This document shows positions 703 to 18,494 of a stretch of DNA of 64,000 bases, piece after piece (position 1 is the first letter of the stretch; each line of letters begins with the position of its first letter). The notes below the pieces were generated by a model. That model had not been told where the DNA came from. It did no database searches and saw nothing but the letters and a program-made list of their open reading frames with translations. The translations under genes and the position numbers were made by a program. Source of the DNA: a virus (Duplodnaviria; Caudoviricetes). The stretch is from positions 1 through 64,000 of IMG/VR virus record IMGVR_UViG_3300037797_000133, one strand, 5' to 3'.

Positions 703-894
703 CTACTCGCCGATGTCGTAGATGGCCTGGCGGGACAGGCCTGCGAGCCGGGCGATCTGTGCGATCGGGGTCCCACTGGCGCGCAGCTCCCGGATGGTGG
801 CGTCACGCAGCTCCCGGAGCGCTTCCTTCTCTGCGTCGATGAGGGCGAAGCGCTCCGGGGCGGGCTGCTCACGGATGGCGTCTGCTGCGCTCAC
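703..894 (-). CDS. Small HTH DNA-binding protein
   Basis: GTPIAQIARLAGLSRQAIYDI helix-turn-helix; GTG overlaps DUF262 stop. Confidence 0.75.
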   Translation of the reverse strand: MSAADAIREQPAPERFALIDAEKEALRELRDATIRELRASGTPIAQIARLAGLSRQAIYDIGE

Positions 895-1514
895 CGGCCG
901 GCGACCTCGGCCGCACGGGCGCGGTCCTCGTCGGTCTGCGGGACACCACCGAAGTTGACCAGCAGGTACAGCTCGGCCTCCCAGGCGTCGCGCTCGGGCC
1001 CGGCGGGGAGGTCGACCCACTTCCAGCTGCCGTCTTCCCCGCGGTGGGGGATGCTCGCCGCGTTGGTCTCGATCGTCGGCACCGGCCAGCTGTCGACGGT
1101 GCGCCGGCCACGAACGGACAGATCGGCGATCGTGACATCACGGCCCCGGGCGGCCTCGCCGTCGGCCAGCTCGGTCGCATGCCACCACCAGCCCGGGACG
1201 GCGAACTCACCGGCGACCCACGCCCGGAGCGCCCGGATGCGCTGCTGGCCGTCCACGACCCGGTAGGTGGACTGCGTCTCGTAGCCCTGGTGGGCGACGA
1301 TCACGGCACCGATCGGGACGCCCATGATCAGCGAACGGATCAGGTTGCGGCGCTGCTCGACCGTCCAGACGGCGCCGCGCTGGTACGGGGCGTCCAGGTC
1401 GAACGGGTCGGGGTCGTCGGCGTCGCGCCAGCTGGTGAGATAGTGCATCGCCGTCCGGTTAGAGGGGGACAGCGACAGTTCGGGGAGCGGTTCGGGGAGT
1501 GCGTCCTGCGTCAT
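891..1514 (-). CDS. Stand-alone DUF262 (GmrS/ParB-like) protein
   Basis: Motifs YQRGAVW, LIRSLIMGVPIG, VVDGQQR. Confidence 0.85.
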   Translation of the reverse strand: MTQDALPEPLPELSLSPSNRTAMHYLTSWRDADDPDPFDLDAPYQRGAVWTVEQRRNLIRSLIMGVPIGAVIVAHQGYETQSTYRVVDGQQRIRALRAWVAGEFAVPGWWWHATELADGEAARGRDVTIADLSVRGRRTVDSWPVPTIETNAASIPHRGEDGSWKWVDLPAGPERDAWEAELYLLVNFGGVPQTDEDRARAAEVAGR

Positions 1515-1562
1515 GAGTGTCAAGTTACTGGACACCGAGTGAGGTGTCAAGACGCTGGACAC
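1515..1562 (-). promoter_or_regulatory. Leaderless sigma70-type promoter with two palindromic operators
   Basis: TTGACA(1550-1545)-N17-TAACTT-N7-ATG(1514); boxes GTGTCAAG-N3-CTGGACAC at 1517-1535 and 1544-1562. Confidence 0.75.
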
Positions 1563-7900: not shown

Positions 7901-8278
7901 TCAGTCCTTCGTGTCGTGATCGGGGTCTTCGGGGAAGCTGGCGCCGTAGGTGCTGGTGAACGAAGCAGACACGAGCGCCCCGACCAGTGCACTGACGATC
8001 GCCTCGGCCTCGGCATCTCGCTCGGTCGGGGCGTCGAGCCACGCCATTGCTCGGTCGACGCCGGGAATCGCGGCGAGGTCGGCGGTCCGCTCGCCGTAGG
8101 CGCCTGCGAGACGCACCAGAACGAGGAAGCTGGGGCGCTCCCGGTCGTTCTCCAGCTTCGACAAGTAGGGGACGCCGATGCGGCACCGGTCAGCCACCTG
8201 GGCGAGGGTCCAGCCCTTCGCGGTGCGGCATGCCTTGAGACGGTCGCCGAGGGTGGGAAGCGTGGTCGTGTCGATCAT
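7901..8278 (-). CDS. XRE-family HTH regulator
   Basis: LGDRLKACRTAKGWTLAQVA...YLSKLEND. Confidence 0.8.
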   Translation of the reverse strand: MIDTTTLPTLGDRLKACRTAKGWTLAQVADRCRIGVPYLSKLENDRERPSFLVLVRLAGAYGERTADLAAIPGVDRAMAWLDAPTERDAEAEAIVSALVGALVSASFTSTYGASFPEDPDHDTKD

Positions 8279-8543: not shown

Positions 8544-8641
8544 GTCCATGACCCTACTCCTGGTGGGTCACCCGGTCAAGGGATATGACCCGCTATAGGT
8601 TGTGTCACATGACCCCCACGAAGTAGGGTCATGGACATGGA
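8539..8641. promoter_or_regulatory. Divergent promoter pair bounded by a perfect 20-bp inverted repeat
   Basis: TCCATGTCCATGACCCTACT (8539-58) / AGTAGGGTCATGGACATGGA (8622-41); TTGACC-N17-TAGGGT leftward; five TGACCC/GGGTCA boxes. Confidence 0.7.
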
Positions 8642-8867
8642 CGACAAGTCGGCCGCCCTGGCCAAGCTGGCGCGGACATCGCAGAAGGCCAAGGACTGGA
8701 CCGAGCAGAAGGCCAAGGACGCCGCCGCCGCCTACGAGGCAGGCGCCAGCGTCAGCGAGGTCGGCAAGGCGATGGGCGTCTCCCCTGAGGCCGCCCGCCG
8801 CTACCTGGAGCGTCAGGGCGTCCAGCGGCGGGAGGCCAACAAGCACCACGGGAGCGGGCAGCAGTGA
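8637..8867 (+). CDS. Small HTH protein
   Basis: GASVSEVGKAMGVSPEAARRYL. Confidence 0.75.
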   Translation: MDDKSAALAKLARTSQKAKDWTEQKAKDAAAAYEAGASVSEVGKAMGVSPEAARRYLERQGVQRREANKHHGSGQQ

Positions 8868-9538
8868 AACCACCGAGCAACTGGATCGACGTGGACGCGG
8901 CAGCGATGGCTGCCTACGTCGTCGAGCGAGAGATGAGCCCCAACGTGGCGGCGATCTTCAAGGGCCTCGTGCACTCGTCGGATCCGAACACGGGCCTGTG
9001 CACGGACCTCAAGGCGGCAGAGAAGATCGCTCGTCGTTTCCGGCGCAACCTCGGCACGCTGAACTGGCACTACCGAATCCAGGCGTTGCACTCGCAACAC
9101 GGCGCGATCGCGTTCTTGCGGTCGGAAGGGCTCGGAGGCATTCCGGCGTGGTACGAGCGCCCCACTGTGCTCATCGCCGACTGGCTGCGCCTGGTTCGGG
9201 CGACGGACGCTCAGGCCGAGACGGTCGCTGAAGCACACGCCCGCATCCTCGAACACCCGAGGACGTGGCCGGTCCGACCGATCGTGTACGGCACGTCCCT
9301 CTATCGGATGTGGAACTACGGCGGCGACCTGCTCTACGTCGGCATCGCCAGCGACCCCGGGAAGCGCTTCGACCAGCACTCCCGCTACAAGCGTTGGTGG
9401 CATGAGGTCGACACGATCAAGGTGATCCACTACCCCACGCGCGCCGAAGCGCGAGCGGCTGAGCTGGTGGCAATCCGCTCCGAGTCGCCCCGCTACAACG
9501 TGGCCGACGCGCCGAAGGTGGACGAGTCGGCCGCCTGA
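8864..9538 (+). CDS. GIY-YIG nuclease domain protein
   Basis: SLYRMW...LLYVGIA...RFDQH...AELVAIRSESPRYN. Confidence 0.8.
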   Translation: MKPPSNWIDVDAAAMAAYVVEREMSPNVAAIFKGLVHSSDPNTGLCTDLKAAEKIARRFRRNLGTLNWHYRIQALHSQHGAIAFLRSEGLGGIPAWYERPTVLIADWLRLVRATDAQAETVAEAHARILEHPRTWPVRPIVYGTSLYRMWNYGGDLLYVGIASDPGKRFDQHSRYKRWWHEVDTIKVIHYPTRAEARAAELVAIRSESPRYNVADAPKVDESAA

Positions 9539-9635: not shown

Positions 9636-11075
9636 TCAGGCGCTGCGTGACGACCGGTACTCGGCGACCGGGATCGGCTCGACGCCTGGCCGCATCCGCT
9701 CCCGGTAGAGGCGGCCGTACAGGTGGTCGACCTCGTGTCCGACCAGCCCCGCTACGGCGCCGTCGTACGACACGAGCCGCACCGTCCCGTCCACGTCCTG
9801 CTGCTCGACGTGCAGCCCCGCCGGCCGGACCGCCTTGCCGCGCACGTCGAAGAACGACAGGCAGCCCTCGTACGCCTCGACGGTCTCCTCTGATTCGCCG
9901 ATCACCTTCGGGTTGATGAGGGTCAGCACCTCGCCCTCAGGGGTCCTGACGAGCGCCACAGCGCGGCTGATGCCGATCTGCGGGGCGGCGATCCCCATCC
10001 CGCCGGAGAAGGCGTGAGCGCCTCTCACCCGCTCCATGGCGGACGCGAGCTCGGCGATGACCCGCCGGCAGTCCTCCGCTTCGGCGGGCAGGTCGAACGG
10101 GCGGGCGACCTCGGCGAGGATCGGGTCGCCTTCCTGCACGACCCCGATCGCCGCCATCGTCTGCGACGGCAGAGCGTCGGTCGTCTGCGGCGGCGCGGCG
10201 AACGACCACTCCAGGCGATACCGGGCCTGGAGCGGCGGGTCGTCCGTCGACCACGAGAACGTCACCGTGTCCCCGTCGGTCTCCTGGGCGATCGCTGTCG
10301 GTAGCGGCTGGGCGTCCGCCGTCGGCGCCGTCTCCATGCCCCACACGGAGGGGAGGAGCGCGGCGGGGAACTCGAGCCGGACCGCCATGTGCCGGGTCGG
10401 GTGGCGGACGGCCCGCTGGTACCAGTGGCCCCACTGCTCGTCGGAGACGGTGTAGCCGTACTCGATCCACGCCTCCTGGCCGGGGTAGAGCGGGAAGCGG
10501 CGGCCGTCGGGTGACTCGAAGCGGAGCCACACCTCCTTCACGGCGTCCCAGTCGTCCTTGACGTCGAGGCTCATCGGGCCGGCGTTGTGGCGCGCCCACA
10601 GGTCGAGCGTCTCCCACGTGAGCGGACGCTCCCGGTAGAGCAACTTCGACCGTTCGGGGTCGCCGGGGTACCGGTCGACGGAGATGCGGACGAGGTAGCG
10701 GGTGACGGGCTCTGTGCCGTCGTTGCGGAGGAGACGCCGCTGGGTGGGGTGGTAGCTGGTCCCGTCGTAGGTGAGGGTCGCTTCGTCGTGCAGGACGACC
10801 AGAGCGCCGCTGGTGGCCGCCGGCTGGTGCTGGCGCCGCCCGGTCGACGGGACGAGGGCGTGGGCCCGCAGGAGCGCCCCTCCGGCGCCGAGCGCCCGGT
10901 CTGCCTCGTCGGCGAACTCGGCCGATGGGCGGGCGACACGGGACTCGACCTTGGACACGTACGAGGCCGTGTAGGTGGTCTCGTCTGCGAGCGACGCCTG
11001 CGACATGCCGCGCACGTGGCGCCAGTGCTTGAGGGTGGTCACGAACGCATCGTCGAGGGCGGTCACTGTGGACAC
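9636..11075 (-). CDS. XRE HTH + unknown beta-rich domain + peptide deformylase fusion
   Basis: N-terminal LKHWRHVRGMSQASLA...YVSKVES; C-terminal PDF motifs GMGIAAPQ, EGCLS, HEVDH all intact. Confidence 0.88.
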   Translation of the reverse strand: MSTVTALDDAFVTTLKHWRHVRGMSQASLADETTYTASYVSKVESRVARPSAEFADEADRALGAGGALLRAHALVPSTGRRQHQPAATSGALVVLHDEATLTYDGTSYHPTQRRLLRNDGTEPVTRYLVRISVDRYPGDPERSKLLYRERPLTWETLDLWARHNAGPMSLDVKDDWDAVKEVWLRFESPDGRRFPLYPGQEAWIEYGYTVSDEQWGHWYQRAVRHPTRHMAVRLEFPAALLPSVWGMETAPTADAQPLPTAIAQETDGDTVTFSWSTDDPPLQARYRLEWSFAAPPQTTDALPSQTMAAIGVVQEGDPILAEVARPFDLPAEAEDCRRVIAELASAMERVRGAHAFSGGMGIAAPQIGISRAVALVRTPEGEVLTLINPKVIGESEETVEAYEGCLSFFDVRGKAVRPAGLHVEQQDVDGTVRLVSYDGAVAGLVGHEVDHLYGRLYRERMRPGVEPIPVAEYRSSRSA

Positions 11076-11162: not shown

Positions 11163-11399
11163 TCACGTCCGACCTCGCTCTGTGGCCCACGCTTCGACGT
11201 CGGCCCGCACCCAGAACGCTGCCCGTCCACGCTCGATGAACGGCGCCGGGAAGTCGCTGTAGCGGCGCCGGTAGACGCTGAGGCCGTCGGGGTTGCCGAG
11301 CTTGATGATCTCGGCGACCTGCGTCCGGTCGATCAGCTCGCCGGCGGCGATGCGCCTTTCGGTGTCCGATGGTGTGGGTGCAGGGGTCTCGGCGGGCAC
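11163..11399 (-). CDS. AlpA/excisionase-like HTH protein
   Basis: LIDRTQVAEII...FPAP...AFWVRADVEAW. Confidence 0.7.
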   Translation of the reverse strand: MPAETPAPTPSDTERRIAAGELIDRTQVAEIIKLGNPDGLSVYRRRYSDFPAPFIERGRAAFWVRADVEAWATERGRT

Positions 11400-11490
11400 A
11401 CCCAGATACTAGTTGACATACCCAACGTAAGGGTGTTGGGTGAGGCAACAGAACGAGACGGGGCGGGGGGAGTGCCAGCTCCCCCACGAC
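11400..11490. promoter_or_regulatory. Divergent control region of the transfer-like operon
   Basis: TTGACA 11413-18; palindrome ACCCAAC-N8-GTTGGGT 11420-41; leftward TAGTAT-N6-GTG; hairpin 11466-85. Confidence 0.6.
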
Positions 11491-11521: not shown

Positions 11522-11785
11522 ATGACTTGCCCGGACGATACGTCGCGCGCGCCGACGGCTGCGCCGACCACCACCGACGACTCAGCCGCCGACCTGCGTG
11601 CGCTCATCGCCAAGCAGGGCGAGGTCATCGCCAGGCTTCAGGCCGACGCCGCCGAGACCGAGCGGGACATCGCGGTCCTCATCGAGCGGGTGTGGCGTAT
11701 CGCCGACCTGATGGGCGGTGCCTACCGGGCGAAGGTGCTCGCTCCGGTCGAGGGCCTCGACATCGACACGGGCGTCGAGCCGTGA
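11522..11785 (+). CDS. Coiled-coil hypothetical protein
   Basis: First gene of rightward operon. Confidence 0.55.
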   Translation: MTCPDDTSRAPTAAPTTTDDSAADLRALIAKQGEVIARLQADAAETERDIAVLIERVWRIADLMGGAYRAKVLAPVEGLDIDTGVEP

Positions 11786-12048
11786 GCAGCCGCCTGTTCT
11801 TCCCCGTGGTCCTGGCAGCGATGCTCGCCGCACGGGTCCTGATCGCTCCGGGCGCCGCCTGGCTGGTCGCCGCCGCCGTCGTGCTGGCCCTCGCCGTCGC
11901 CGAGGTGATGGACCGGGTCCGGGACCGTCGCCGCGACCGCGAGTTGCTGAGCCGACCGACCGTGATCATCGACGGCAAGCCGTACACGTCGGAGCAGTTC
12001 GTCTCCGGCGAGTGGCTGCACGACGAGCGACCGGAGGACCGGCCGTGA
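11782..12048 (+). CDS. Small membrane protein
   Basis: Two hydrophobic segments, coupled. Confidence 0.6.
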   Translation: MSSRLFFPVVLAAMLAARVLIAPGAAWLVAAAVVLALAVAEVMDRVRDRRRDRELLSRPTVIIDGKPYTSEQFVSGEWLHDERPEDRP

Positions 12049-12212
12049 AGCCCCTCGCCGTCCTCGTCGGCCTCGCTGCCCTCGTGGCTGCCGTGGTCGT
12101 GGCTGAGCGCATGACCCGCCCCTGCCGCCCGCAGCCCCTCGACCCCGCCGCGACGGACGCCATCTACCGGACGCAGCTCGACGCCGAGCGCTACGCCGGA
12201 GGCTGGACGTGA
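12045..12212 (+). CDS. Small membrane protein
   Basis: One TM segment, coupled. Confidence 0.5.
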   Translation: MKPLAVLVGLAALVAAVVVAERMTRPCRPQPLDPAATDAIYRTQLDAERYAGGWT

Positions 12213-12352
12213 CCCGCCTCCTGCCTCCGGTCTTCGACGGTCGGAGAGACGACAAGTACGCCTGCCCGATCCAGCGCTGCAATAAGACGGCCCGCGGCCA
12301 AGTGGCCCCGAGCTGCCCGCAGCACAAGGTCCCGATGGAGAAGGTGCGTTGA
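12209..12352 (+). CDS. Small Cys-rich protein
   Basis: CPIQRC...CPQH, coupled. Confidence 0.45.
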   Translation: MTRLLPPVFDGRRDDKYACPIQRCNKTARGQVAPSCPQHKVPMEKVR

Positions 12353-12504
12353 GCGCCTACCGCAAGACGAAGCGCTTCCTCTACCGGGCGCTCAGCTTCT
12401 CCAACGACATCGACGCCGCCCGCAAGGGGCCGAAGGCGCTCGCCCGACGGCTCCTCCGCAAGGAGCTGCTCAAGGGCGCTGGCCGACTGTCGAGGCGCAT
12501 CTGA
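12349..12504 (+). CDS. Small basic protein
   Basis: TTG start overlapping upstream stop. Confidence 0.45.
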   Translation: MSAYRKTKRFLYRALSFSNDIDAARKGPKALARRLLRKELLKGAGRLSRRI

Positions 12505-12683
12505 TGGGCGACGGCTTCACCGCCGCCGAGTGGGCGGTCCTCGCCGCGTTCTGGGCGGCGGTCATCGCTCTCGCCTGCGGTCAGCCCTGGCTCGCCGCGG
12601 TGGCCGGTGTCGCCCTCGTCGCCGCGGTCTACGCCGCCCTGCGGCAGCCCGAGGGGCCCGAGCGGGCCCCCGGCGACCGGTGA
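12504..12683 (+). CDS. Small membrane protein
   Basis: Two TM segments, TGATG coupling. Confidence 0.55.
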   Translation: MGDGFTAAEWAVLAAFWAAVIALACGQPWLAAVAGVALVAAVYAALRQPEGPERAPGDR

Positions 12684-12828
12684 TGGCCCGCACCCTCGAC
12701 CCGCCTCCCGGCCGGCCCCCGCACGTGCCGCCGGTGAAGCGCCCCCACCCGGTCGCCCCGATCCCTATCCGCCGGCCAGGCGAACCCCGCCGGCCCTGAA
12801 CCCCAGACAGCCACCAGGAAGGAACCAG

Positions 12829-13029
12829 ATGGCCAGACGCACCGAAGCCCAGGAGCGTGCCCTACGCACCCGTGTGGCGGCAGCCCTCGACGAGACCGTG
12901 GCGCTCGGCCAGGGTCGCCGCGACGCAGCGACGGGCCGGGCGGACAGCCGCAAGGCGTGGAAGGGCAACAGGCACGCCTACGCCGACGGTGTCCGAGCCC
13001 ACCGCGACCGGAAGGGCGGCGGGCGATGA
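12829..13029 (+). CDS. Small basic protein
   Basis: AGGAAGG RBS. Confidence 0.5.
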   Translation: MARRTEAQERALRTRVAAALDETVALGQGRRDAATGRADSRKAWKGNRHAYADGVRAHRDRKGGGR

Positions 13030-13160
13030 AGAAGACCAAGGGCCCGCTGCTCGGCCCCAACAACCGTCGCAAGCGGCCCGAGCTCGAGTGGTGCAAGCCG
13101 ACCCGGGCCGACCGCAAGGCCGACCGCGCCGAGCGCAAGCAGCAGCGGGGTCGTCGGTGA
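13026..13160 (+). CDS. Small basic protein
   Basis: Coupled. Confidence 0.4.
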   Translation: MKKTKGPLLGPNNRRKRPELEWCKPTRADRKADRAERKQQRGRR

Positions 13161-13339
13161 TGGCCCGCAAGCGGTTCGTCCCCAACGCCGGCGCTCGCAA
13201 CGACCGATGCCCGACGTGCGACGACACCGGGTCGACCCGAAGCGGTCGCCCCTGCATGCGCTGCACCGGCCGCAACGGCGGTCCTGGCCGGATCGTCCCG
13301 GGCCGCGAGCGCGGCCACCGCTACGGGAAGCGCCGGTGA
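13160..13339 (+). CDS. Small zinc-finger protein
   Basis: CPTC...CMRC. Confidence 0.5.
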   Translation: MARKRFVPNAGARNDRCPTCDDTGSTRSGRPCMRCTGRNGGPGRIVPGRERGHRYGKRR

Positions 13340-13665
13340 TGGCCGACCCGAAGGTCATCCGCTTCCCGAAGGCGACCACCGCCGAGGACAGCGAGCATCT
13401 CGCCGGGGCGCTCCGTGGCCTCAGCGCCGACGTCGGTGTCCGCTACGCCCGCGTCGCCGACGGCGGCCACCACGGGCGACCCCGGGTCGTCGTGGTCGTC
13501 GACGAGGTGCAGTCGTACCTCGGCCGGTCCCCGGTCAGCCGGGACATCGCCCGCCGGCTCGTCGACATCGCGAAGACGGGCCGGGCGGTCGACGTCACCG
13601 TCCAAGCCACCTACTCCAACCCGCAGGCAGTCCCGCTCGACCTGCGGGACGCCCTCACCCCCTAG
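13339..13665 (+). CDS. Truncated FtsK/TraB-like ATPase fragment (Walker B half only)
   Basis: VVVVDEVQSYLG...DIAKTG...DLRD aligns with TraB IFIDEAQRYIG...DIAKVG...DLRD; no Walker A. Confidence 0.65.
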   Translation: MADPKVIRFPKATTAEDSEHLAGALRGLSADVGVRYARVADGGHHGRPRVVVVVDEVQSYLGRSPVSRDIARRLVDIAKTGRAVDVTVQATYSNPQAVPLDLRDALTP

Positions 13666-13760
13666 CCCCCATCAGCGAGTTGGTCCGGCGGAGGTAGCCG
13701 CCTCCGCCGGACCGAAGTCCAGACCCACCCCCATCAGCAACGAGAGAAGGAACCAGACCA

Positions 13761-13916
13761 GTGAAGACTCGCACGCAGATCGAGCGGGAGGCGTGGCTGC
13801 GGCGCGACCGGCGCGTCAGCCGCAAGCGCACCCGCCAGCTCTCCGCCGCCATGCCGTCCATCGAGGACCAGCGGAAGCAGTTCGACCGCACCAGCCGCCA
13901 GGCGGTGGCCCGGTGA
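13761..13916 (+). CDS. Small basic protein
   Basis: GAAGGA RBS after 13-bp hairpin 13682-13713. Confidence 0.45.
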   Translation: MKTRTQIEREAWLRRDRRVSRKRTRQLSAAMPSIEDQRKQFDRTSRQAVAR

Positions 13917-14128
13917 CGATCACCCTCGGTCTCCTGCTCCTCATCGCCGGCTTCCTCGCATGGAAGATGCGCGGCGCCCAGATGCCCCACCTCGTCCTCG
14001 GGGCGCTCATCATGAAGGCGTCGACCGCCGGCTCGATGGTCGACCAGCTCGGCGCCACCGGCATCCAGGTCGTCCAGACCCTCGCCTCCGCCCTCAGCAC
14101 CGCCTTCGGCGGCGGGGCGATCGTCTGA
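13913..14128 (+). CDS. Small membrane protein (Spd-like context)
   Basis: Hydrophobic, coupled. Confidence 0.55.
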   Translation: MTITLGLLLLIAGFLAWKMRGAQMPHLVLGALIMKASTAGSMVDQLGATGIQVVQTLASALSTAFGGGAIV

Positions 14129-14388
14129 TGGCTGACGTCAACGACCGCCAGGAACGCGACGCCCCCCGTGTCGTCGTGGCCATCGACGAGTGCCAGCAGT
14201 GGGTGAAGCCGAAGCGTCCCCGGTGGCGGCTGAGCCGCTGGCAGCGGGCCGTGTTCGCCGTGCTCACTGTCGTGGCGTTCGTCCAGTCGTTCACCGACCC
14301 GTTCGCCGTCGCGGCGTTCGCCGTCGCTGTCGTGTGGCTCGGCGCTGACATCGCCGCGGACCTCCTCGAGCGGAGGGGGCAGCGGTGA
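14128..14388 (+). CDS. Membrane protein with N-terminal Walker-B-like motif
   Basis: PRVVVAIDECQQW followed by two TM helices. Confidence 0.55.
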   Translation: MADVNDRQERDAPRVVVAIDECQQWVKPKRPRWRLSRWQRAVFAVLTVVAFVQSFTDPFAVAAFAVAVVWLGADIAADLLERRGQR

Positions 14389-14657
14389 TCGGCGTCGACT
14401 CTCCGGCCGGCGGGACGGTCGACCCCGACCTGCTCATCGTCGGCGCCGCCCTGGTCGTCCTGTGGATCACCTTCGGGCGCAGCCACAGGGCGACCCGGGT
14501 GCGGACCCGGGTCGGTAACCGGCCCAAGGCCCGCTTCTGGTCCTGGTGGCCGGTCGCGGTCCTCGCCCTCGCCGTGATGATCGTGCTCGGCCTGCCCGGC
14601 GAAGGCATCCACATCGGCGGGGACAACGTCGCCGACACGACGGGGGAGGGGCCGTGA
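14385..14657 (+). CDS. Small membrane protein
   Basis: Two TM segments. Confidence 0.55.
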   Translation: MIGVDSPAGGTVDPDLLIVGAALVVLWITFGRSHRATRVRTRVGNRPKARFWSWWPVAVLALAVMIVLGLPGEGIHIGGDNVADTTGEGP

Positions 14658-14845
14658 ACGGTGGACCCGATCGCCAGGACCGCCCAGTGGCTGGTCCCTC
14701 TGGTGTGTCTGGCCTGCGTCGTGGCTGGTCTCGTCGATGCCATGGTCGGCCGTTAGCTGACGTGGCGCTCCTGCTCGTCGGCCCGGTCGCCGTCATCGGC
14801 GTGGCCGCCGTCGCCTACCTGATCGCCACGGGGCGGATCCGATGA
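14654..14845 (+). CDS. Small membrane protein
   Basis: C-terminal TM. Confidence 0.45.
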   Translation: MNGGPDRQDRPVAGPSGVSGLRRGWSRRCHGRPLADVALLLVGPVAVIGVAAVAYLIATGRIR

Positions 14846-14991
14846 TCGTCCTCGACCACGACCCCCTAACCGACGAGGACCGCACCCTGGCCGGCCCCGT
14901 CGAGCGGCGCATCCTCGCTGCGATCGACGAGTCGGAGCGGCTCGCCGCCGAGGAGGACGCCTGGCGGCGTCTGGCAGGGGAGGCGTCGTGA
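14842..14991 (+). CDS. Small acidic protein
   Basis: Coupled. Confidence 0.45.
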   Translation: MIVLDHDPLTDEDRTLAGPVERRILAAIDESERLAAEEDAWRRLAGEAS

Positions 14992-15164
14992 TCGGCCTCG
15001 CCTTCGGGGCGGTCCGTCACCGGATCGGCCTCCTCGTCGTCATCGCGGTGATCATCGTCTTCGCCACCGGCCTCCCCCTGCGGGTCGAGGAGCACTTCGC
15101 CCCCGTCGACAACCCGTACGACGACACCCCCACGACCACCGAACCGGAGGTGGCATCACCGTGA
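14988..15164 (+). CDS. Small membrane protein
   Basis: One TM, coupled to DUF2637 gene. Confidence 0.5.
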   Translation: MIGLAFGAVRHRIGLLVVIAVIIVFATGLPLRVEEHFAPVDNPYDDTPTTTEPEVASP

Positions 15165-16234
15165 GCAGCGCCAACGGACAGCGCTACGCCGAAGGCGACA
15201 TCTTCACCGTCTGGCGCGACCAGACCGAGGAGTACGTCGAGGAAGAGGGCAGGGTCGCCGCCCGGCGCACCACCACCGAACGGCGCCCCCGTACGCCCAC
15301 CGCCGCCGAGGGACGGGAGGCCGCAGGGTCGCTCCTCTTCGACGGGATCACCGCCCTCGGCATCGCGGTCCTTGGGCTCATCGGCTTCTACGTGAGCTTC
15401 TCGACGGTCCGCGACTCGGCGGTCGGCCAGTCGTTCGGGTCGAAGGCGTGGGCGCTCCCGCTCACCGTCGACGCCGGCATCGCCGTCTTCACCGCCCTCG
15501 ACCTCCGCATGGCCGCCCACGGCATGCGCGCCCGCTGGGTGCGCGTGTTCCCGTGGGCGCTCAACGGCATCACCGTCTACCTGAACGGCGCCGAGCAGGC
15601 CACGTGGGCCGGCAAGATCGGCCACGCCGCCCTGCCGTTCATGTGGATCGGCGCCGTCGAGGCCGTCGCCCTCATCGTGAAGCGTCGCACCCAAGGCCCC
15701 AAGCCTGAGGTCGACCAGATCCCCCGGGCCCGCTGGCTGCTCGCCCCCGGCCCGACCCTGCTGCTGTGGCGGCGCATGCGCCTGTGGGGCGTCACGTCCT
15801 ACGACGAGGCGCTCGAGCGCGAGTGCGACCGTCGCCTCGTCCGGGCCCGTCTCGCCCAGCAGCACGGTTCGCTGCGCAAGCTCCCGGCCGAGACCAGGGA
15901 GCTGTACCGGATGGGCAAGCTCCGGGCCACCGACGTCGTCCTGGAGGTGCCCGCGGTCGTCACGGTCGACCCGCCGGCCGCTCCTGCGGCCCCTGAGGCG
16001 CCCGTGGCGGCTCCGACGCTCGTCGCCGTCCCTGCACTGCCGCCGGCCGATGAGGCCCGCCGGGAGGACGTTGAGACGGCCGCCCGCCGGATCGTCCGCG
16101 ACCAGTTCGACGGCAAGTGCCCCGGCCGCCCCACCCTCACCGCCGCCCTCAAGGCCGACGGACACACGATCAGCAACGCCGACGCCGCCGACCTGGTGCG
16201 CCGGCTGAAGGCCGAAGGGAACGACAGTGCTTGA
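15161..16234 (+). CDS. DUF2637 membrane protein (transfer/spread-associated)
   Basis: Four TM segments with LPLTVDAG, LLWRRMRLWG motif, Pro/Ala linker, C-terminal HTH-like PGRPTL...ISN. Confidence 0.75.
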   Translation: MSSANGQRYAEGDIFTVWRDQTEEYVEEEGRVAARRTTTERRPRTPTAAEGREAAGSLLFDGITALGIAVLGLIGFYVSFSTVRDSAVGQSFGSKAWALPLTVDAGIAVFTALDLRMAAHGMRARWVRVFPWALNGITVYLNGAEQATWAGKIGHAALPFMWIGAVEAVALIVKRRTQGPKPEVDQIPRARWLLAPGPTLLLWRRMRLWGVTSYDEALERECDRRLVRARLAQQHGSLRKLPAETRELYRMGKLRATDVVLEVPAVVTVDPPAAPAAPEAPVAAPTLVAVPALPPADEARREDVETAARRIVRDQFDGKCPGRPTLTAALKADGHTISNADAADLVRRLKAEGNDSA

Positions 16235-18494
16235 CCGCGAGGACAAGTCGCTGCGCCGCATACTCGAGCGCCGTAGTGGCCGGTACGTCAACGACGACCT
16301 CGCCGACGACATGCTCGGCCACATGGGCGTCGGCCCCGTCGCCGCCACCGTCGTCGAAGACGTCGACTGGGACGAGGAGCTGTCCGAGCTCGAAGACGTC
16401 ATCGACGTCGAGCCGATCGACCCGCCCGGCGATCTGCCCGACCGCGGGGCACCGAAGCTGCCCCGGGCGGACCGGGAGTCCCGGCCGGTTCTGCCCGCCT
16501 GGCTCGACGCCCCGAAGGCAGCGGTCAAGCAGCGCTGCCGGGACCTCAAGCACGACGTGAAGTTCCACGCCACCCGGGCGCCGTCCTACGCCGGTCGGGC
16601 CGTGAAGTACGCGCCCGCTGGCGTGGGCCGCACCTACCGGGGCCTGTACCGCTGGGCGACCGACTACGAGTCGGCGCCCGCCCGGTACCTGGAGGCGCAG
16701 CGGGGCAACACGTCCGCGTACCTGGCGCTCGCTCAGCAGCGAGACGAGCGGGTGCATGACCGGCGGTTCCTGGCGATGGGTCTCGGCTGCCTACTGCCGC
16801 TCACGGTCCTCGCCGTCTGGTTCGGGCTGACCGGACCGGAGCTGCCCGGACAGACCCGCCTCGTTGCCTTCGTGGCGGCCCTTGTGACGGTCGTGGTCCT
16901 CGGCCATATCGGGGCACCGGAGGACAAGCCGATCGTCGAGTCGGCCGCCGCCGGCCCGGCACGCCGCCGGATCACCTGGTCGATGCTGCGGGCCGCGTTC
17001 GAGGCCGAGGGCGTGAAGCTGTCCAAGGCCCGCCCCGACGGCGCCCCCGCCGACCCGGCTCGAGAGATGACGCTCGTCCGGGAGATCTCCCGCGACGCCC
17101 GAGACACCGGCTACGTGGCGACGATCGACCTGCCGTTGGGCAAGACCGCGGCGGACGCCATGGCGAAGCGGGACAAGATCGCCTCCGGGCTGTCCGTCTC
17201 CCGGGCCCAGGTGCACATCACCCCCGACGCGGACAGCGAGCGGCGCATCAACATCTACGTCGCCGACGTCGACCCGTTCACCCGCCCTCGCCGGGTCTCC
17301 CCGTTGGCGTCGCTGCGCCAGCTCGACTTCTGGGAGGGCTTCGACTTCGGCACCAACGCCAAGGGCGAACCGGTCCGGCTCAAGCTCGTGTGGACGCACC
17401 TGCTCGTCGCCGCCATCCCCCGGATGGGCAAGAGCTACGCCGCGCTCATCGCCGCGTGCGCCGCCGCCCTCGACCCGCGGGTGCGGATCATCATCCTCAA
17501 CGGCAAGAAGGGCGCCTGGCGTCACCTCGCCAAGGTCTGCCACCGCTACGTGGCCGGCGCCCGCGACGAGGCCGTCCTCTACGTGCTGCGCACCCTGCGC
17601 GAGTGCAAGGCCGACATCGACGCCCGCGGCGACCGCATCGAGGAACTCGACGAAAAGTACGGCTACGGCGACAAGCTCGTCCCGCAGGTCGCCTCCGACC
17701 CGAGCCAGGGCATGCCCCTCGTCGCGATCTTCATCGACGAAGCGCAGCGCTACATCGGGCACGGACAGTACGGCGGCGAGATCCTCGCCCTCTTGAAGGA
17801 CATCGCCAAGGTCGGACCCTCGGCCGGCTACATGCTGATCGTCGCTGTCCAGAAGCCGACCGGCGACGTCATCGACACCGACCTCCGGGACAACATGGGG
17901 CTCCGCTACGTGCTCCGCATGAAGACCTCGGCGGGTTCGAAGGCGGCGCTCGGCGAGATCACCCCGGGCTTCGACCCGGTGCAGTTCTCGGACAGGCACA
18001 AGGGCGTCGGGGTGCTCGACGGGTCGGACAACGAGGAAGAGTCGCTCGACGGCGCGGACATCGACATTGTCCGCACGGACAGCCTCGACATGGCGATGGT
18101 CGAGGAGATCGCGGACAGGGCCCATGCTGTCCGGACAGGCATGAACAAGCTGTCCGGCTACGCAGCGGGCGACGACCTGTCCGAGGAGTCGACGCCGTTC
18201 CTGCTGCTCGACCACCTGTCCGACGCCATCAAGCTCGGCGAGGACAAGGTGTGGTCAGCCGATCTGATCCGCCGCATCGCGGACAGTCACCCCGAGGCGT
18301 ACGACGGCTGGTCGCCCGACGACCTGGCCAACCACCTGAAGCCGTACGGGGTCGAGACGATCCAGATCAGCCGCACCGTCACGGACCCTGAGACGGGCGT
18401 GAAGCGCCAGAAGAACTGGCGTGGCGTCGCCGTCGCGGACCTCACCGAGGCCTACAACCGGGAGATGGCGAAGCGCGCCGCGCTCGGCCAGTGA
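16227..18494 (+). CDS. traB: TraB-type FtsK/SpoIIIE DNA translocase
   Basis: Two TM helices, Walker A-like AIPRMGKS, Walker B IFIDEAQ, QKP, C-terminal winged helix (VWSADLIRRI...WSPDDLANHLKPYGV). Confidence 0.82.
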   Translation: MLDREDKSLRRILERRSGRYVNDDLADDMLGHMGVGPVAATVVEDVDWDEELSELEDVIDVEPIDPPGDLPDRGAPKLPRADRESRPVLPAWLDAPKAAVKQRCRDLKHDVKFHATRAPSYAGRAVKYAPAGVGRTYRGLYRWATDYESAPARYLEAQRGNTSAYLALAQQRDERVHDRRFLAMGLGCLLPLTVLAVWFGLTGPELPGQTRLVAFVAALVTVVVLGHIGAPEDKPIVESAAAGPARRRITWSMLRAAFEAEGVKLSKARPDGAPADPAREMTLVREISRDARDTGYVATIDLPLGKTAADAMAKRDKIASGLSVSRAQVHITPDADSERRINIYVADVDPFTRPRRVSPLASLRQLDFWEGFDFGTNAKGEPVRLKLVWTHLLVAAIPRMGKSYAALIAACAAALDPRVRIIILNGKKGAWRHLAKVCHRYVAGARDEAVLYVLRTLRECKADIDARGDRIEELDEKYGYGDKLVPQVASDPSQGMPLVAIFIDEAQRYIGHGQYGGEILALLKDIAKVGPSAGYMLIVAVQKPTGDVIDTDLRDNMGLRYVLRMKTSAGSKAALGEITPGFDPVQFSDRHKGVGVLDGSDNEEESLDGADIDIVRTDSLDMAMVEEIADRAHAVRTGMNKLSGYAAGDDLSEESTPFLLLDHLSDAIKLGEDKVWSADLIRRIADSHPEAYDGWSPDDLANHLKPYGVETIQISRTVTDPETGVKRQKNWRGVAVADLTEAYNREMAKRAALGQ

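Follow-up and report, generated by a model that had tools for sequence, protein, structure and literature searches.

A phage protein joining an XRE helix-turn-helix, a beta-saddle and a peptide deformylase represents a large Actinomycetota family with fused and split forms

The 64,000-nucleotide stretch of DNA analysed here (the window) lies within a 78,596-bp IMG/VR virus record, IMGVR_UViG_3300037797_000133, with genes for a large terminase, a portal, a major head protein, a tail fibre, a serine integrase and an FtsK/SpoIIIE-like protein. The carrier is a temperate actinomycete phage, and the gene studied here, at positions 9636 to 11075, is indeed phage-borne, as an original prediction made from the sequence alone had stated. 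That prediction had also described its 479-amino-acid product as an XRE helix-turn-helix (HTH), a beta-rich middle domain and a peptide deformylase (PDF) with three catalytic motifs, and the open reading frame (ORF), the Pfam matches, the motif positions and an AlphaFold model all confirm this layout (Table 1). The ORF starts with GTG, and its G+C content at third codon positions (GC3, 0.94) is the strongest coding signal of the neighbourhood. Residues 11-70 match HTH_31 (PF13560; E-value 3.6e-10, 40.4 bits against a cut-off of 27) and residues 312-463 match Pep_deformylase (PF01327; E-value 3.2e-30, 105.2 bits against a cut-off of 22.8); no Pfam family matched residues 75-310 between them. 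The full-length AlphaFold model, built with 43 homologues as input, has a mean predicted local distance difference test score (pLDDT) of 87.6 and a predicted template modelling score of 0.79. It consists of a helical HTH (residues 8-73), a disordered linker (77-89), an all-beta domain (92-292) and a PDF fold (303-475). The HTH, the middle domain and the PDF are all strongly conserved in the 43 aligned members, and many residues of the middle domain are invariant. In the recognition helix of the HTH, Y35, Y39, K42 and E44 are invariant and S38 and S41 nearly so. No PHROG family spans the whole protein, only separate domains being matched, and the matches in PADLOC-DB 2.0 were at the level of the HTH only (HTH_VI, capH and RmrA).

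Table 1. Features of the fusion gene and its surroundings in the window
Feature	Position	Strand	Basis
Whole gene, XRE-HTH / beta-saddle / peptide deformylase, 479 aa	9636..11075	-	ORF, translation, GC3, Pfam, AlphaFold
XRE-type helix-turn-helix, residues 11-70	10866..11045	-	Pfam PF13560 HTH_31
Disordered linker, residues 77-89	10809..10847	-	pLDDT <50 in full-length model
Beta-saddle middle domain, residues 90-298	10182..10808	-	Domain model and structural alignments
Complete PDF domain, residues 303-475	9651..10169	-	PF01327, Foldseek
PDF motif 1 GMGIAAPQ, residues 359-366	9978..10001	-	G359, G361, A363, A364, Q366 invariant in family
PDF motif 2 EGCLS, residues 403-407; Cys is a metal ligand	9855..9869	-	E403, G404, C405, S407 invariant
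PDF motif 3 HEVDH, residues 447-451; metal ligands and catalytic Glu	9723..9737	-	H447, E448, D450, H451 invariant
Terminator-like hairpin directly 3' of the stop codon	9578..9607	-	12-pair stem, 11 GC pairs
Degenerate CACTCAC copy CACTCCCG, one mismatch, 19 nt before the start codon	11087..11094	-	Motif search
Upstream small ORF on the same strand, 78 aa, excisionase/AlpA-like	11163..11399	-	PHROG 597 E 8.8e-6; PHROG 66 E 3.7e-5
TAGTAT -10-like box	11406-11411	-	6 nt before GTG of small ORF
Operator-like palindrome, perfect core ACCCAAC-N8-GTTGGGT (11420-11441), overlapping a TTGACA hexamer	11412..11449	.	One site in 64 kb, none in shuffles
Divergent operon of many tiny genes, then DUF2637, then an FtsK/SpoIIIE (TraB-like) protein	11522..18494	+	Domain calls; context

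All catalytic and metal-binding residues of the PDF are invariant in the 43 aligned members. The fold matches solved PDFs, including actinonin complexes, with a Foldseek E-value of 1e-12 and template modelling scores of 0.75-0.86 normalised to the target, and the domain can be aligned to these enzymes from their N-terminus through motif 3. Because the metal site and the catalytic site are complete, the domain should bind N-formyl-methionyl termini and actinonin-type inhibitors. It falls below the NCBIfam equivalog cut-offs for housekeeping Def, with 86.7 bits against 103.95 for TIGR00079 and 93.9 against 125 for NF001159. A tree was built in which the PDFs of the family, called system PDFs here, were the fused form, a split form, a DUF4062-linked form and one trypsin-linked form, the last three described below. 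On one side of a long branch (SH-aLRT, the Shimodaira-Hasegawa-like approximate likelihood-ratio test, 95; length 0.7) lie the system PDFs; on the other are the canonical Def encoded by the same genomes, together with 19 of 20 single-domain phage PDFs. The system PDFs are a clade apart from housekeeping Def and from most phage PDFs. The expectation that phage PDFs are mostly single-domain enzymes also held, as 106 INPHARED records match residues ~304-478 only. One IMG/VR contig of 61% GC (L011:9944-10540) carries a standalone PDF of ~190 aa with no HTH-saddle gene nearby; it has the C-terminal tail specific to the family (...PVSAY...GQAWQY), and the tree groups it with the system PDFs and not with other phage PDFs.

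Structure prediction and a Foldseek search of the middle domain, both proposed with the original prediction, revealed a beta-saddle fold. Modelled alone, the domain reaches a pLDDT of 94.2. By VIA-align, the best matches are the lumenal domain of ribophorin I/OST1 (6s7o_E and 6c26_1, Z 14.8 and 14.6) and the N-domain of the putative protease BDI_1141 (Z 13.7), followed by a long series of N-terminal beta-saddle domains of M1/M61 aminopeptidases (Z 8-12.7). Foldseek agrees on the saddle fold with an E-value of 1e-6, so two independent aligners concur. The likeness is one of fold: with no Pfam match and with 5-17% identity in the structural alignments, the domain does not belong by sequence to PF17900 or to ribophorin I. 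In M1 enzymes the saddle domain directly precedes and caps the HEXXH catalytic domain. Compared with the M1 aminopeptidases LTA4 hydrolase (5fwq), ERAP1 (3qnf) and Deinococcus M1 (6a8z) and with ribophorin I/OST1, the domain has the same fold over 150-175 aligned residues, in a Z range of 9-14.8, and as in M1 enzymes it directly precedes an HEXXH metallohydrolase domain. Whereas the catalytic partner in M1 enzymes is a thermolysin-like domain, in the window protein it is a PDF. This gives PDF a new partner domain.

The fusion is neither unique nor specific to phages; it represents a large, unstudied family of Actinomycetota. More than 1,263 relatives came from a word-indexed search. Each of the best 120 has a length of 476-552 aa and the same annotation of HTH_31 and PDF; their identity to the window protein is 54-63%, except for the window's own protein and one relative at 88%. 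Their sources include Streptomyces, Kitasatospora, Nocardia and Amycolatopsis, often with contigs of Mb size, and the only name they bear is 'peptide deformylase'. In species-representative genomes, at least 579 stretches were confirmed across Actinomycetota, including Frankia, Actinomadura, Nocardioides and Acidimicrobiales. The fusion is in no INPHARED phage record, and it was found in nine further IMG/VR viral contigs (L002-L010). No paper on the HTH/saddle/PDF architecture was found in the literature searched. The original prediction was to fall if the protein proved to belong to a well-characterised host family with no link to mobile elements; a large host family does exist, but it is uncharacterised and many of its members lie on prophages or integrative elements. 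In five loci of Frankia, Parafrankia and one metagenome-assembled genome (L137, L140, L148, L156 and L160), the match begins at query residue ~82-90 and covers the saddle and the PDF; these copies may have no XRE HTH, or may have another N-terminus. Shortened extra copies at G001:C1:8733600-8734493 and G154:C1:1638455-1639180 cover residues 189-476 or 245-476 only, thereby the PDF with a portion of the saddle, and may be decaying paralogues.

Among 201 Streptomyces species genomes, 10 (5%) contain the full-length fusion and ~19 (~9%) gave matches to residues 3-298 only. A fused or split form is thus present in ~15% of Streptomyces species, patchily and in one copy per genome, which marks an accessory gene. 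The partial matches had been candidates for siblings without a PDF, an idea ruled out by the loci themselves: in 16 of 16, a gene of 324-330 aa for the HTH and the saddle is followed by a separate PDF gene of 187-194 aa, whose start overlaps the preceding stop by 4 nt in 15 loci and by 7 nt in one. The PDF of the split forms is ~51% identical to the PDF domain of the fusion. The overlap in every locus indicates that fused and split genes are alternative forms of one two-part system, and this equivalence strongly supports a joint function of the PDF and the HTH-saddle protein. Split forms cluster as a single clade (SH-aLRT 99) within the fused forms on the PDF tree, a pattern that one fission explains.

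An XRE HTH protein fused to, or co-transcribed with, a HEXXH metallohydrolase, divergent from an operon and often found on phages or integrative elements, is an arrangement shared with ImmR/ImmA of ICEBs1, DdrO/IrrE and CapH/CapP. A switch of that kind would have the PDF-fold partner, fused or encoded by the next gene, cleave the XRE repressor on a stress signal, for instance in the linker. The disordered linker at residues 77-89 and the scores of the HTH against the capH and RmrA profiles are in line with such a switch. The hydrolase here, however, is PF01327 and not M78/COG2856, of which Pfam found no domain, and the protein has a beta-saddle in addition. Moreover, every feature specific to PDF is strictly conserved, among them the Cys metal ligand and the motif 1 that makes up the formyl-binding pocket, and this argues for formyl-amide over endopeptidase chemistry. 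We consider a proteolytic switch distinctly improbable.

The saddle is also joined to other partners. An exhaustive profile search with the saddle alone gave 411 cluster representatives, and 20 of these were scanned with Pfam to define architectures. Besides HTH+saddle and HTH+saddle+PDF, the scans returned Trypsin_2+saddle+PDF, DUF4062+saddle+PDF, DUF4062+saddle, Trypsin_2...saddle, a calcineurin-like phosphoesterase (Metallophos)+saddle, and a weak nSTAND3 match followed by the saddle and an inositol-monophosphatase-like domain. The PDF motifs are intact in the DUF4062- and trypsin-linked proteins. In the last architecture (P0174, 918 aa), after the weak nSTAND3 NTPase match and the saddle, a domain of the inositol-monophosphatase (IMPase) family stands in place of the PDF, which suggests that the saddle can partner with other small-molecule enzymes. 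When a conserved C-terminal module is found on output or effector heads that can be exchanged, that pattern is the usual mark of an input, or sensor, module. DUF4062 is a TIR-like NADase effector found in antiphage systems with variable C-terminal sensor regions (PMC13174449, 10.64898/2026.06.25.731849); neither paper mentions a deformylase. In the single-protein antiphage systems Swarozyc and Evangelion, a DUF4062 effector is N-terminal and a sensor C-terminal, and the DUF4062+saddle+PDF protein (P0134) follows the same logic; unlike the NADase of these systems, the window protein carries an HTH. The suggestion that the window protein belongs to a defence or stress module was not borne out for the HTH version, whereas a defence role is a live idea for sister architectures with an NADase head, such as P0134, or a protease head. 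A wider proposal would make saddle plus PDF an unrecognised bacterial sensor module that reads N-terminal formylation or PDF inhibitors as a danger signal and is wired either to transcription, through the HTH, or to killing effectors such as the DUF4062 NADase, the trypsin-like protease and the phosphoesterase. We regard this wider proposal as possible, if doubtful.

The near-invariant recognition helix predicts a shared operator. The most enriched words upstream of the gene are the 7-mers of CACTCAC(G/A), found in 39 of 80 loci against a background of 3% (p ~1e-37). They occur at -60 to -5 relative to the gene start, always in the orientation of the gene and often in 2-3 copies spaced by 10-11 or 21 nt, and the block also holds a -10-like TAGGCT. 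The element is found in the split loci too. In the viral clade, it is part of a palindrome with 8 of 9 positions paired, CCTGAGAGT-N5-ACTCACAGG, which is followed by a second copy. Across loci, covariation with the variant of the repeat is seen for a complementary half-site that lies 25 or 36 nt upstream (Fisher p 1e-4). This element at the gene's own promoter is consistent with autoregulation. No Rfam family matched at the gathering threshold in the conserved leader of six loci. Canonical CACTCAC sites were also considered as a route to a phage regulon, an approach ruled out by the absence of enrichment: the window has 4 sites against ~10 expected, none of them in a control region.

These promoter data also suit an alternative, namely that the protein is mainly an accessory or resistance PDF carried by the phage, an extra or inhibitor-insensitive deformylase for the lysogen in soil with actinonin-type compounds, whose HTH only autoregulates the dose. 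Its catalytic motifs and fold are intact, a standalone system-type PDF exists in L011, and accessory PDFs are frequent on mobile elements and can make their carriers resistant to actinonin (PMC12690207). The functional def-fmt of Exiguobacterium, the only PDF fusion found in the literature searched and the sole fusion in the 2025 survey of accessory PDFs (PMC12690207), indicates that PDFs tolerate fusion. However, this alternative leaves unexplained the obligatory and highly conserved saddle of 200 aa, the coupling to NADase, protease and phosphoesterase heads, and the exchange of the PDF for an IMPase-like domain in one relative. The separation of the clade from housekeeping Def, below the NCBIfam equivalog cut-offs, also speaks against it, and an N-terminal load of 300 aa may hinder docking at the ribosome exit tunnel. 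We judge it rather unlikely as the main function.

In the window, a control region of 122 bp lies between the small ORF upstream of the fusion gene and the divergent operon. The small ORF gave no Pfam match and has a weak coding score; it is probably the first gene of the same transcription unit as the fusion. The placement of the fusion downstream of an AlpA-like HTH gene was correct as to an upstream ORF on the same strand, whereas the likeness to excisionase/AlpA is weak and comes from PHROG profiles. Conservation of this ORF was ruled out, as neither a homologue nor a convincing coding ORF is present in the corresponding 570-625-nt gaps of the nine related viral loci. The -10-like TAGTAT so close to the GTG of the small ORF suggests a leaderless transcript. 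The palindrome in the control region is unrelated to the CACTCAC element. The gaps in L002-L010, between the divergent operon and the fusion gene, are conserved at both ends only, and the end beside the divergent gene bears a hairpin-like repeat, CCCCG...CGGGG.

This arrangement brings in another explanation, in which the protein would be a repressor of Kor type or an immunity repressor, acting on the divergent TraB/Spd-like transfer operon or on lytic growth, and the PDF would be incidental. In position, though in position only, a gene divergent from a TraB-like operon takes the place of KorA/TraR in Streptomyces plasmids. The nine other viral contigs repeat this geometry, with a long divergent operon that ends in a ~430-aa protein and an FtsK-like protein and with a DnaB helicase downstream. 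The palindrome, unique in the window and overlapping a -35 hexamer in the shared control region, could serve as an operator. Against this, the nine related loci carry the operator-like element directly before the fusion gene and ~500 nt from the start of the divergent operon, which lends no support to control of that operon. The family as a whole adjoins many unrelated operons, and a second XRE repressor candidate is present at 7901-8278. In addition, the repressors of the Streptomyces transfer (tra/kil) genes, KorA/TraR, are GntR-type, whereas the HTH of the window protein is XRE-type by Pfam. We consider repression of the transfer operon or of lytic growth highly unlikely as the role of the protein. 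The suggestion that the protein regulates the divergent transfer-like operon is not supported, given both the position of the element in the viral loci and the survey of neighbourhoods, in which the operons beside the chromosomal regulator (sugars, QueC, ribonucleotide reductase, NUDIX) are unrelated.

In that survey, the upstream neighbour is divergent in ~66 of 82 loci, usually 100-300 bp away, and no universal partner gene was found in the 82 loci, the commonest neighbour family being present in 12. Fused forms on chromosomes adjoin DegT/GFO/epimerase sugar genes, NUDIX, ribonucleotide reductase, QueC/QueD/radical-SAM genes, pSAM2-type RepSA and integrases. Split forms adjoin a conserved glycosyltransferase operon in mid-chromosome. 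The DegT, dehydratase and glycosyltransferase neighbours had raised the idea that the PDF acts on, or senses, N-formylated (formamido) sugars; it was rejected, with support in one locus of ten. The formyltransferase domain PF00551 is hundreds of kb away in four split loci (G014, G021, G044 and G091) and absent within the five fused DegT loci searched. The single link in the ten loci is a PF00551-type match at G126:C1:90605-90877, just beyond L171, directly after a sugar 4,6-dehydratase/DegT aminotransferase operon, from which a split HTH-saddle/PDF system is transcribed divergently. In ten Streptomyces loci (L136, L138, L141, L146, L147, L150, L151, L153, L157 and L159), a conserved island is divergent from the fused regulator and lies ~10 kb upstream. 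It contains genes for QueC, radical-SAM, DUF6884, phosphoribosyltransferase, FGE-sulfatase-like, glycosyltransferase and reverse-transcriptase (RVT_1) proteins and looks like a 7-deazaguanine or retroelement-type conflict island. Elsewhere in the window, the 223-aa product of the gene at 891-1562 (-) has the N-terminal domain of a restriction endonuclease, GmrSD_N (DUF262-type). The XRE-family repressor candidate at 7901-8278 (-) has strong PHROG repressor/regulator matches, and nearby, at 8631-9538 (+), a GIY-YIG endonuclease gene is coupled to a small gene for an HTH protein; this region may be the actual immunity region of the phage.

The reading that we tentatively favour, and to which we give slightly less than an even chance, is that the window protein is a self-regulating trigger enzyme or one-component regulator in which the saddle and the PDF would report formylated N-termini or PDF inhibitors. 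The XRE HTH would bind an operator in the promoter of its own gene, and perhaps neighbouring promoters as well, and the beta-saddle and the PDF would form the signal-input module. The PDF would bind, and probably hydrolyse, N-formyl-methionyl termini and would bind actinonin-type inhibitors, while the saddle would gate the PDF site and relay its occupancy to the HTH. A build-up of formylated N-termini, or an inhibitor in the site, would alter DNA binding and derepress the unit. Inferred here are the ligand, how the domains are coupled and in which direction regulation runs. The favoured reading and a role as an accessory PDF are not exclusive of each other. The original idea of a transcription factor linked to N-formyl-peptide sensing or processing survives in its make-up, a fusion of a DNA-binding protein with a PDF that appears competent; for its role, it is the best available reading of the sequence. 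PDF inhibitors induce particular prophages independently of SOS, through a sensor that has not been identified (10.1101/2025.06.06.656871). This induction makes a self-regulating sensor biologically plausible for a temperate actinophage and is a parallel only.

Several observations weigh against the favoured reading. The intact active site fits a plain enzyme equally well, and the Vibrio precedent for induction concerns unrelated phages and names no sensor (10.1101/2025.06.06.656871). That the saddle may cap the PDF site is proposed by analogy with M1 enzymes only. Effector-linked relatives are few in the scanned sample, and the PDF of a second trypsin-linked protein sits on a long, unstable branch of the tree. 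The covariation of the half-site comes from 2-3 clades only. In the window itself the CACTCAC copy is a trace with one mismatch, which leaves autoregulation unproven for this phage.

PDF is essential to the cell and a target of antibiotics; its classic inhibitor, actinonin, is a product of Streptomyces. The family is a concrete and testable candidate for how cells or phages sense deformylation stress. If the wider proposal of a sensor module is true, temperate actinophages would gain a way to sense translation stress or antibiotics independently of SOS, and the family would supply the kind of sensor still missing for prophages induced by PDF inhibitors. Even if the protein is only a self-regulated spare enzyme, more than 1,000 database entries named 'peptide deformylase' are three-domain regulators, and the fused/split pair defines a new two-part system. 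New in this analysis are the finding that fused and split forms are equivalent, the saddle of aminopeptidase type, the sister architectures with effectors, the separate clade of system PDFs and the element at the promoter.

Among known systems, the closest in enzyme content are the accessory PDFs of mobile elements, such as Def2 of Vibrio cholerae, the integron PDF cassettes and OrdE (PMC12690207, 10.1101/2025.06.06.656871). With these, and with phage PDFs such as that of cyanophage S-SSM7 (PDB 3uwa), the window protein shares PF01327, the three motifs, the PDF fold and carriage on mobile DNA. Whereas those enzymes are single-domain proteins of ~150-190 aa, the PDF of the window is joined to an XRE HTH and a 200-aa saddle or, in the split form, translationally coupled to a gene for such a protein. 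The trigger enzymes PutA, BirA and NadR combine a DNA-binding domain with a competent enzyme, whose occupancy is thought to set repression. Like them, the window protein has a DNA-binding domain and an enzyme domain in one polypeptide, with putative self-regulation at its own promoter; unlike them, its enzyme, fold and organisms are unrelated, and its enzyme module also occurs with heads that do not bind DNA. We know of no trigger enzyme based on a PDF. The gene is genuine, intact and conserved, and, judged on its domains, it is best filed as a combination of known kinds, an accessory PDF with an XRE regulator or trigger enzyme.

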